Source: Opitutales bacterium
GTDB lineage: Bacteria > Verrucomicrobiota > Verrucomicrobiia > Opitutales > PNEW01
Direction of reading: 5' to 3'
Assembly (NCBI GenBank): GCA_965219535.1
Contig: CBDCNV010000001.1
Coordinates: 1,260,001-1,292,000 of the forward strand
Length of the DNA: 32,000 nucleotides
Part shown: positions 18,170 to 20,245 of the stretch, one piece after another
Layout: each line of letters opens with the position of its first letter
Position numbering within the stretch: the stretch's first letter is position 1
Made by a program: the position numbers and the translations under genes
The notes under the pieces: generated by a model
The model's database searches: none
What the model saw: the letters and a program-made list of their open reading frames with translations, nothing else
What the model was told of the DNA's origin: nothing

Positions 18170-18844
18170 ATATACGCGTAAATGCCTGGATATCCGGGTC
18201 GCTCGTCAACTCACCTCAACCGATGTCCTCTCTGTGCTTAGCGAGGCCATTGAAGAGGAGGGACCTCCCAGCTATATCCGTAGTGACAACGGCAGTGAGT
18301 TCATTGCTCATCAAGTGCAGCAGTGGTTGTCCGGTAATAACATAAAGGCGATCTATATCGATCCGGGCAGTCCCTGGCAAAACGGTTTCATCGAGTCGTT
18401 TCACAACCGCTTACGCGATGAGTGTTTGAACCGTGAAGTGTTGCTCAGCGTGGCTGAAGCGCAAGTGGTAATCGAACAATGGCGTCAGACCTATAACCAT
18501 GAACATCCCCACAGTCGTTTAGGCTTCAAAAGCCCACAAGAGTTTGTCAGATTCCTTTCCGATCTTGGCCGCGTTCGGGCTACGCCCTCACTTCGCCAAG
18601 ATCTCTCATATACATCAATCCTAAAACCATTAACACCCGGTAACTCTCTCACTTAAATTGGTACGAAAAACGGGGTCCGATCAATATCGCTCAAGACGCT
18701 TTCTTTCTAGTTTACAAGCAGTTTAGCAACCTGCGACGTCCTGATTCATTTGTTCCTTGGTTACGTGGAATTGTAAGAAATCTCTGCCTGCGCAGGATTC
18801 GCGATAACGAGAAAAGAAGGGTTGACCATTATGAAGTTCTAGAA

Positions 18845-20245
18845 ATGCGAGTCGAAGATGATCCTGGAAAATCTATTGAACAGCTTGAAGATCATATGAG
18901 TCTTTATCAGTCAATCTACAATCTGCCACAAGGTTTTCGCGAGGTTATAATTCTTCATTACATGAGATGTCATAGCCATCAACAGATCGCTGCATTTATG
19001 GGTATATCCTTAAGTCAAGTGAACAATCGCCTCCACAAAGCAAGAAAACTAATTAAAAAGAGAATTCATAAAATGACAGAAAACGATCTTAATCAACCTA
19101 AGTTAGATGATACGTTCGCAGAACAAATTGGAAAACTCGTTCAAATTCAAGGTCGGATTATCGAGATAGAGTTTCCTGAAACTAAAATACCGGATTGCTT
19201 ATCTACTCTAGACATTATTGATGTAGGAAAAGATGATATAACAAAGGCAGTTGTAATCCAGCGACTGGAGAAAGGAGTGGTTAGAGCAATAACTGAAGTC
19301 GAACTCGACTCCGCTAATGTCGATAAGAAAGTTAATGCGGGCCTAGAGCATACGCAAAGTGTTTCGATGAAAACCATTAAAGACGCTATAAAACGTCTTA
19401 GCATTGATAAAACGGAAGGTGCTGACCTTGTCGAAACGGGTATCAAGTCCATTGATCTGTTTTGTCCGATAACCAAAAAAGGGAATATAGGGATTTTTGG
19501 ACCATCAGGTGTAGGGAAGATGGTACTTGTTGAAGAGCTGACATGGAGGCTCGCTGATAAGGGCCAATCGAATAGCATATTTGCTTTTCAATTGCCCGAG
19601 GAACAAAACACGTATGTGGGGCTTCAACGAGATGATGCAAAAGAAGAACGAGAAGAAATGCATCACTATTTCCGCCCTTCTAATGATGGACCACAGATTG
19701 CTTACATACCTACCTTGGACGCGTCTGATCCAGAATTTGCGAATTCAATAAAGGAAGAGTTCGACTCACTATGCTTTCTACACCATGAAATGGCGGTATT
19801 TGACGTCTGGCCTGCCGTTGATCCATCTTATGGCTTTTCAAAGCTTCTCCATAGGGAGGGTGTTCCAGCTCGACATCGCGAGATTGCGACAAAGGTCAAT
19901 AACACAGTATTAGAGGTTAAAAATGAATTCATTGATAGAGATACTTTGCTTCTCTTGTCTAATCGAGCCCGGGTAGCAGCCAAAAGAAGGCTTATAGAAT
20001 TAATCAAAAATAAATTGGATGAAAAAAACACAGCAGAAAGGAAGCATTTAAATAGGTCACTACAGTTACTATATTTCTTAGGAACTCCGTTTTTCTTTGC
20101 AGAAAGATGGACCAAACGAAAGGGAACATATATTCCCTTAAATGAAGTCTTTGATAGCTGTGAAGCTATAATGGAAGGGCAATATGATGATGTTGATCAT
20201 TCCAAATTTATTATGATTGGAAGCTTATCTGAAATAATAAATTAA
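18845..20245 (+). CDS. ECF-type sigma-70 factor (5' end removed by the IS) fused in frame to a degenerate F1-ATPase beta-subunit-like domain
   Basis: The frame is open upstream to the IS end. Codons 18686-18844 translate to IAQDAFFLVYKQFSNLRRPDSFVPWLRGIVRNLCLRRIRDNEKRR (sigma region 2 remnant). Region 4 is [48 protein letters not shown]. The C-terminal ~375 aa are colinear with AtpD: [55 protein letters not shown] and [51 protein letters not shown]. Confidence 0.8.
   Translation: [466 protein letters not shown]

Follow-up and report, generated by a model that had tools for sequence, protein, structure and literature searches.

A 32,000-nucleotide stretch of the genome of an Opitutales bacterium (contig CBDCNV010000001.1, positions 1,260,001 to 1,292,000; hereafter the window) contains a 5'-truncated gene in which the core of an extracytoplasmic function (ECF) sigma factor is joined, in one reading frame, to a domain that descends from the beta subunit of F1-ATPase. 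Control of transcription through sensor domains fused to ECF sigma factors is an established phenomenon, although little is understood of how it works. The fusion is a native one, present in hundreds of loci and under purifying selection. We consider it fairly probable that the members of this family are one-component ECF sigma factors whose regulatory extension is a beta-derived pseudo-ATPase.

Architecture of the fusion gene

Window positions 18686-20245 (+) translate as a single open frame of 519 codons and a stop. From N- to C-terminus the product comprises the latter half of region 2 of an ECF sigma factor, then region 4, a linker, and ~375 residues colinear with F1-ATPase beta, an arrangement that had been described in an earlier, sequence-only reading of the window and that Pfam and NCBIfam matches now bear out. 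Pfam recognises the tail of Sigma70_r2 (profile positions 26-70 of 71, so that region 2 is incomplete in this copy), Sigma70_r4_2 and, from ATP-synt_ab, the first 38 positions only, which correspond to the P-loop; in family member P0012, ATP-synt_ab_N is also above its cut-off. Among NCBIfam models, sigma70-ECF (TIGR02937) exceeds its cut-off in the window remnant (61.3 bits against 42.9), and atpD (TIGR01039) matches in three stretches (E=7.6e-38) with 130.5 bits against a cut-off of 462.85, which does not reach the level of an AtpD equivalog. The longest ATG-initiated open reading frame (ORF) within the truncated gene is 18845-20245, which encodes 466 residues.

The closest homologue, P0001, is 99% identical and has 569 residues, beginning with 50 residues that are missing from the window gene. 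It is encoded on a contig, L001, that is colinear with window positions 18684-24121 at 98.9% identity. The search for orthologues with an intact N-terminus, which the sequence-only reading had proposed, thus recovered one in which the fusion is complete. The parts of the window gene, including what is left of the nucleotide-binding domain (NBD), are as follows.

18684-20245, forward strand: sigma/beta-like fusion gene, 5'-truncated; codons 51-569 of the intact 569-residue orthologue plus stop, 98.9% nucleotide identity to L001 3703-5264
18686-18820, forward strand: ECF sigma region 2, of which only the C-terminal half is left (Pfam Sigma70_r2)
18938-19066, forward strand: sigma region 4, helix-turn-helix for the -35 element (Pfam Sigma70_r4_2, E=1.3e-10)
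19067-19129, forward strand: linker of ~20 residues (pLDDT, the predicted local distance difference test score, below 50 in the model of the orthologue)
19130-19342, forward strand: N-terminal beta-barrel domain of beta; aligns to the barrel of true beta subunits, with AlphaFold2 (AF2) strands at residues 198-268
19430-19825, forward strand: minimal NBD remnant, from alignment to beta subunits
19430-19468, forward strand: segment of the NBD remnant 5' of the P-loop
19499-19522, forward strand: degenerate P-loop, GPSGVGKM
19586-19693, forward strand: non-homologous stand-in for the catalytic core
19694-19732, forward strand: adenine-Tyr strand
19805-19825, forward strand: VWPAVDP
19826-20242, forward strand: C-terminal helical domain of beta; aligns to Bacillus PS3 beta 298-463 and to true beta subunits, with model pLDDT above 90
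within 19934-20044, forward strand: ~22-residue insertion at the site of the DELSEED loop
20084-20125, forward strand: conserved C-terminal motif

The family carries a bona fide ECF (group 4) sigma core composed of regions 2 and 4 only. In the intact orthologue this core scores 91.2 bits against TIGR02937 (cut-off 42.9) and matches the Pfam models for region 2 and r4_2. None of the named NCBIfam ECF subfamilies (SigW, SigE, RpoE, and the Bacteroidetes and Rhodopirellula/Verrucomicrobium types) reaches its cut-off, the best being TIGR02985 with 97.7 bits against 126.4. A redox switch formed by a Cys pair, C84 in sigma2 and C310 in the beta-like domain, was considered and rejected: only 59 of 99 members have C84, and its presence shows no covariation with C310.

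The extension has lost the catalytic core of F1 beta

Profile, alignment and structure-model comparisons agree on the origin of the C-terminal ~375 residues, which by these comparisons are descended from F1 beta. A profile of the family matches solved F1 beta chains with E=1e-101, in two blocks between which the core is missing, and beta rather than alpha chains head the list. In an alignment of the beta-like part (window 19241-20242) with the beta subunit of Bacillus PS3 (1sky_E), query residues 61-115 correspond to beta 132-186 and query residues 146-333 to beta 298-463. PS3 beta residues 187-297, which lie between the two blocks, are replaced by ~30 unrelated residues. The colinearity with ATP synthase beta that had been noted earlier, against E. 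coli AtpD, is borne out by these profile and pairwise comparisons with solved beta chains.

The loss is a property of the family. When the family is aligned to three true beta subunits, 38 of 38 members lack everything between GVGERTREG and the Walker B strand, both included, an absence that had also been noted earlier, and another ~20 residues are gone as well. The deleted strands carry the catalytic Glu, the neighbouring Arg and the Walker B Asp, and the loss from the catalytic core amounts to ~110-130 residues. From the P-loop Lys position to the adenine-stacking aromatic position there are 46-62 residues in 99 members; in a true beta subunit the same span is ~183 residues (Lys162 to Tyr345 in bovine numbering). 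What remains of the P-loop is degenerate. The Lys position is occupied by K in 43, T in 26 and R in 10 of the 99 members, and the Thr position, which is Met in the window gene as had been pointed out, is M, L, I or A in 37 of 38, so that the family does not conform to the Walker A pattern GxxxxGK[ST]. The DELSEED loop, which contacts the rotor, is variable or replaced. Near-invariant features are the motif ETGIKxIDLxCP, V330, E334, (Y/W)PAVDP, QPFxVAExFT..PG and a C-terminal G..D..PE.AF..G.

An AlphaFold2 model of P0001 (pLDDT 84.6; predicted template modelling score, pTM, 0.66) falls into three units. The first is the helical sigma core and the second a beta-barrel; the third is a small sheet with helices that leads into a helical bundle. 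Low confidence is confined to the linker between sigma2 and sigma4, the linker between sigma4 and the barrel, and the replaced core segment. Foldseek returned F1 beta chains as the best Protein Data Bank (PDB) matches of this model (E ~1e-20). As modelled, the domain retains the beta-barrel, a four- to five-stranded stump of the NBD and the C-terminal helical bundle. Because all members lack the core, nearly all lack the Mg-binding Thr and more than half lack the P-loop Lys, the domain is, as far as can be judged from sequence and predicted structure, catalytically dead and unable to hydrolyse ATP, in agreement with the pseudoenzyme interpretation first offered for it.

The fusion recurs in hundreds of loci and is under purifying selection

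An initial protein search returned ~45 more full-length relatives of 490-590 residues and 27-33% identity with the same sigma and beta layout. In an exhaustive profile search of 1.84 billion cluster representatives (50% clustering), at least 75 full-length single-stretch matches head the list. A metagenome scan with an alignment limited to the sigma core and barrel confirmed at least 541 loci, of which 80 were kept for analysis. A second, word-indexed profile search added almost no members, and a scan of a genome collection with the pattern ETGIKx[IV]DL, taken from the full-length alignment, returned ordinary atpD genes only. The family is widespread in soil metagenomes, in hosts whose GC content ranges from 44% to 75%. 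Two members carry an organism name, both from metagenome-assembled genomes of Thermomicrobiales.

Selection was estimated from the ratio of non-synonymous to synonymous substitution rates (dN/dS, omega) between P0001 and P0002, which are 75% identical. The ratio is 0.15 in the sigma part and 0.15 in the beta-like part. Thus, the beta-like extension is constrained as much as the sigma part.

These data bear on the possibility that the fusion is an artefact or a local accident, that is, an assembly or sequencing error, a one-off joining of genes, or decaying beta-like junk. Such a view could draw on the window gene, which is truncated and lies between two insertion sequence (IS) copies, and on locus L089, in which the sigma and beta-like ORFs seem to be separate and overlapping. 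However, the same architecture stands on hundreds of independent contigs across the GC range given above, and a dN/dS of 0.15 over the beta-like part is not that of junk. In L089 (820-930) the two frames are joined by a 1-nucleotide indel in a T-run within sigma region 4, and the beta-like frame, followed back beyond its called start, carries on the region 4 helix (...STVNNRLHEARAFLKKRMLTMV). L089 is a frameshift, from either a sequencing error or a pseudogene, and not a true split. It is the sole apparent two-gene case, an outcome that the sequence-only reading had named as damaging to its case, and also the single case examined of a stand-alone mini-beta gene. An artefact is refuted for the family, and we give this explanation next to no credence.

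A sister family with a less reduced nucleotide-binding domain

The exhaustive search also contained ~35 representatives of 640-790 residues (within P0206-P0272) in which an ECF sigma factor is followed by ankyrin repeats and then by a beta-like NBD and C-terminal domain. Sigma regions 2 and 4 and Ank were matched in 35 of 35 long representatives, and ATP-synt_ab in 33 of 36 aligned sequences. The two families share a related sigma core (FPGWFRRI versus FPGWLRGIV), the ETGIK, PAVDP and QPF motifs and the C-terminal domain. They differ in that the sister family has 3-5 ankyrin repeats in place of the barrel and a less reduced NBD, which is nearly full length and includes a Walker-B-like strand. 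Its P-loop is degenerate too. A complete catalytic set was found in 0 of 6 sister sequences read, some of which hold single catalytic-type residues. One further protein, P0203, lacks both the barrel and the ankyrin repeats, so that such an NBD follows the sigma core immediately.

The sister family seems to represent the same recruitment at a stage of lesser reduction, and the comparison suggests that beta was recruited to a sigma factor once, long ago, and then progressively reduced. Ankyrin repeats are a generic protein-binding module, and protein binding may be what the portion of the extension next to the sigma core does.

Gene context and a candidate promoter

We compared the surroundings of the fusion gene in 91 loci, 80 of them from the metagenome scan and 11 examined one by one. 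No anti-sigma factor gene adjoins the fusion gene in any of them. Neither alpha/beta-type nor other atp genes are present in the window or within ~5 kb in the 91 loci, which extends the earlier remark that no atp genes are nearby. The analysis of conserved neighbours, also proposed earlier, found no recurrent neighbour family in these loci, scattered mobile-element genes aside.

The upstream regions do have a bipartite motif in common, AAAG-N15/16-GGCAC. In an unbiased enumeration of 4-mer/5-mer dyads it ranked first, occurring in 8 of 10 independent regions against a maximum of 4 regions in 200 dinucleotide-preserving shuffled sets. The last two loci fetched, after the motif was first noticed, both have it, and the ten-region enumeration includes these two. 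Among the metagenome loci, the exact dyad is present in 60 of the 76 with sufficient upstream sequence, nearly always 43-51 nucleotides before the ATG. The position matrix reads Y-AAAG-S, 14 low-information positions and Y-GGCAC-Y-T-A-t-t-G-G, after which comes a GGAGG ribosome-binding site. In L094 the motif comes after a terminator-like hairpin. In both L094 (8001-8163) and L084 (6001-6024) the motif lies within or over an annotated N-terminal extension, and the starts have probably been placed too far upstream.

Two other readings of the motif were rejected. On inspection of the upstream sequences, the TGGCAC element is not accompanied by the -12 GC of a sigma-54 promoter at the proper spacing; and the low-information spacer and the lack of a conserved left arm do not fit an inverted-repeat operator or hairpin. 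Two short blocks 16 nucleotides apart, in this position, suit a promoter of the ECF type, and ECF sigma factors are typically autoregulated. From this we infer that the fusion protein transcribes its own gene, and the motif is probably its autoregulated promoter. In L087 there are two extra copies, at 1515-1539 and 3647-3671, of which one lies 48 nucleotides upstream of a 71-residue ORF and the other ~70 nucleotides upstream of an ABC exporter gene pair. The only match in the window, at 29596-29620 (-), was discarded as a promoter: it is inside a 3'-5' exonuclease ORF, and 0.45 matches are expected by chance.

Proposed regulation by the beta-like domain

In the mechanism that we propose, the F1 beta-derived domain, connected to the sigma2-sigma4 core by a short flexible linker, would replace a separate anti-sigma factor as a regulatory module in cis. 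This putative regulatory or sensor module would hold the sigma core in an inactive or an active conformation, or recruit a partner protein, and the activated sigma factor would transcribe its own gene from (Y)AAAG-N15/16-GGCAC.

Several points weigh against this mechanism. It presupposes contact between the beta-like domain and the sigma core. Use of the motif by the fusion sigma factor is deduced from the position and geometry of the motif, which is unlike the common ECF consensus (AAC/CGT). Extra copies near other genes are convincing in L087 only, and the genes there are the sole candidate regulon members. Finally, the residues of the adenine pocket are conserved: 82 of 99 members have an aromatic residue at the adenine-stacking position, and the pocket motif PFxVAE.FT is strongly kept. 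Ligand binding is therefore possible, in which case the domain might not simply be a passive scaffold.

This last point is also the basis of a different proposal, in which the domain would be a sensor of nucleotides or energy state: the remnant would bind ATP, ADP or another phosphorylated ligand without hydrolysing it, and its occupancy would switch the sigma factor and so couple transcription to energy charge. In keeping with such a role, the glycine-rich loop and its flanks are conserved (the first glycine, G322, in 94 of 99 members and the last, G327, in 99 of 99, with V330 and E334 near-invariant), and the mini-NBD is under purifying selection (omega 0.12). However, the retention of the P-loop Lys in only 43 of 99 members (T in 26, R in 10) weakens the sensor version, as does a Thr position that is mostly hydrophobic. 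The deletion also takes in the strands that bear Walker B, the catalytic Glu and the Arg next to it, and the alpha subunit, which completes the site in F1, is absent here. Moreover, the conserved motifs double as core folding elements of the ATPase superfamily. We regard a nucleotide sensor as rather unlikely.

The domain might instead act as a beta mimic that binds F1 alpha, another ATP-synthase component or an assembly factor, so that the sigma factor would be sequestered or released according to the state of assembly. The domain is of beta and not alpha type, with beta chains as its best matches among solved structures throughout, and it keeps the barrel and C-terminal domains, which touch neighbouring subunits in F1; the sister family, too, has a protein-binding module, in the form of ankyrin repeats. 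Against docking stand the absence of an alpha-like or other atp gene within ~5 kb in the 91 loci, the loss, along with the NBD core, of a large share of the alpha/beta interface, the variable or replaced DELSEED loop, and the fact that the barrel is dispensable in the sister family. To us this makes docking on ATP-synthase components improbable.

A bolder proposal is that the family reads the state of the ATP-synthesis machinery directly, with the beta mimic keeping just so much of the beta fold as it would need for binding adenine nucleotides or docking unassembled F1 alpha or assembly factors, and thereby switching an autoregulated sigma factor in response to energy charge or to the assembly of ATP synthase. 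We know of no described link of that kind between bioenergetics and promoter selection, and we hold this proposal to be speculative and unlikely.

Comparison with known systems

Regulatory domains fused to the C-terminus of an ECF sigma factor are known from ECF41 SigJ, with a SnoaL-like domain, ECF42, with tetratricopeptide repeats (TPR), and ECF238 CorE, with a Cys-rich tail, among the examples given in two surveys (PMC7826278, PMC8999054). The one-component reading of the fusion family fits this pattern: a sigma2-sigma4 core plus a C-terminal domain, a stand-alone gene without an adjoining anti-sigma gene, and an upstream promoter-like motif, with one-component logic. The difference lies in the derivation of the extension from F1-ATPase beta. 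The extension matches ATP-synthase beta models only, and by its type is set apart from the catalogued groups (ECF41, ECF42, ECF56, ECF238, ECF294 and others).

The main text of the 2021 ECF reclassification (PMC7826278), as distinct from its supplementary group descriptions, does not mention ATPase or ATP synthase, and neither does a 2020 paper on ECF evolution. In the table of extension-bearing groups in a 2022 review (PMC8999054), which identifies each group by number and model protein and not by the kind of extension, no match stood out, a few groups having been followed into the text. Full-text literature searches that paired ECF or sigma factor with terms for ATP synthase, or with names of Pfam families, yielded nothing relevant. 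In the main texts and the review table, then, we met no ECF group with this architecture, nor did the sequence-only reading know of one, and the fusion family is apparently undescribed in the ECF literature searched; a bare catalogue entry is possible.

With AtpD the fusion domain shares the colinear beta-barrel, P-loop domain and C-terminal helical bundle and the motifs ETGIKxIDL, GxxGVGK, YPAVDP and QPFFVAExFT. Unlike AtpD, it lacks the equivalent of PS3 beta ~187-297, has lost the P-loop Thr and often the Lys, has a replaced DELSEED loop, and is encoded outside any atp operon in a gene joined to a sigma factor (130 bits against the AtpD cut-off of 463). Beta paralogues that work outside ATP synthesis, some with N-terminal extensions, are also found in mycoplasmas as the beta-like subunits of gliding G1-ATPases, MSC_0618 and MMOB1670, and paralogues of this type are among the weaker NCBIfam and PDB matches. 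The mycoplasma F1-like paralogues retain the catalytic core and act with alpha-like partners encoded alongside, whereas in the fusion family the core is deleted and there is no partner gene nearby.

For sigma factor biology, the family adds a type of extension built from the recycled catalytic subunit of ATP synthase, which is among the most conserved of enzymes. For protein evolution, it is a clear case in which the duplicate of an essential enzyme subunit lost its active site and was put to a new, putatively regulatory use, with intermediate stages surviving in the ankyrin-containing sister family and in P0203. Such a fusion would surprise specialists of sigma factors and of ATP synthase alike. 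The wide spread in soil metagenomes, together with a sharply defined candidate promoter, makes the signal of the domain directly testable.

The window copy is a remnant truncated at an IS element

In the numbering of the intact orthologue, the window gene is broken between codons 50 and 51, exactly where the first of two IS copies has its right end.

17334-18683, forward strand: IS3-family copy 1, decayed, with orfB split; ORF matches to HTH_Tnp_1, HTH_21 and rve/rve_3; right end abuts codon 51
23660-25017, reverse strand: IS3-family copy 2, inverted relative to copy 1; also present in L001

Assignment to the IS3 family is based on an orfA with HTH_Tnp_1, an orfB with a DDE rve domain, and the terminal inverted repeats TGGAGTGACCCC / GGGGTCCGATCA. 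The two copies are 92.6% identical, with many indels. The earlier claim that copy 1 removed the 5' end of the sigma part is right as to the place of the break, but the event was more than a simple insertion: the missing N-terminal residues of P0001 have no match anywhere in the window (tblastn), and the DNA to the left of the IS is unrelated to the upstream region of the orthologue. The 3.7 kb of L001 upstream of the gene, and its sequence past the second IS, which is at the same place as copy 2, have no counterpart in the window. By these comparisons, codons 1-50 and the promoter were lost through an IS3-family insertion plus further rearrangement.

Movement of the bracketed segment as a composite transposon was also considered. 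On either side the outer flank is unlike that of L001, but there is no sign of the target-site duplication that would prove such movement. A short ORF at 17294 (MTLDSISDVDKDDVLVE*), to the left of the IS, was rejected as the lost sigma N-terminus, as it runs into the IS inverted repeat and is unlike the orthologue. The segment of 5 kb between the IS copies contains the sigma-beta remnant, an AAA_33 kinase, an APH phosphotransferase, a 77-residue ORF and a 532-residue protein. Directly to the left of IS copy 1, at 16293-17033, is a serine recombinase gene (resolvase N-terminal domain plus helix-turn-helix), a further sign of a mobile or rearranged region. The GC content of the fusion gene, 39%, is below the window average of 45.6% and far below that of most hosts of the family (60-75%), which hints at horizontal acquisition in this lineage.

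The window copy itself is a remnant and, on its sequence features, very probably non-functional. Its 466-residue product, with region 4 and the beta-like domain, could in principle still be expressed and, for example, titrate the partner or signal of an intact paralogue. The ATG-initiated ORF is intact, and the 90% cluster of the intact orthologue contains, besides 569-residue versions on at least 6 other contigs, one 466-residue member (P0123), which from its equal length is probably this very ORF; relative to P0001 and L001 the remnant has just 7 amino-acid differences. However, the native promoter motif and ribosome-binding context are gone, and region 2 is required for productive binding of core RNA polymerase and for recognition of the -10 element, neither of which the product would achieve without it. 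The 7 non-synonymous and 4 synonymous changes would fit relaxed constraint, in numbers too small to interpret or to decide the matter. We think it very unlikely that the remnant is active.

Other features of the window

Two tandem paralogous genes for family-5 solute-binding proteins, at 10209-12269 and 12917-14965, are 72-74% identical in nucleotide sequence over long stretches and precede genes for OppB/OppC-type permeases and for a DUF6772 protein (7118-8029). Among named organisms, the best relatives of the Opp permease are from Planctomycetota (68%) and Chloroflexota (63%). At 12520-12977 a unit of 229 bp is present as an exact tandem duplication, which overlaps the start of an SBP_bac_5 gene by ~60 bp, and a 52-bp piece of the unit recurs with 87% identity at 15287-15338. 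Genes for an HpcH/HpaI aldolase (111-989), a PEP mutase-family protein (1083-1946), a PhyH dioxygenase (2230-3081) and an aldo-keto reductase (3257-4090) form a cluster at 111-4090 that may have a role in phosphonate or organic-acid metabolism.

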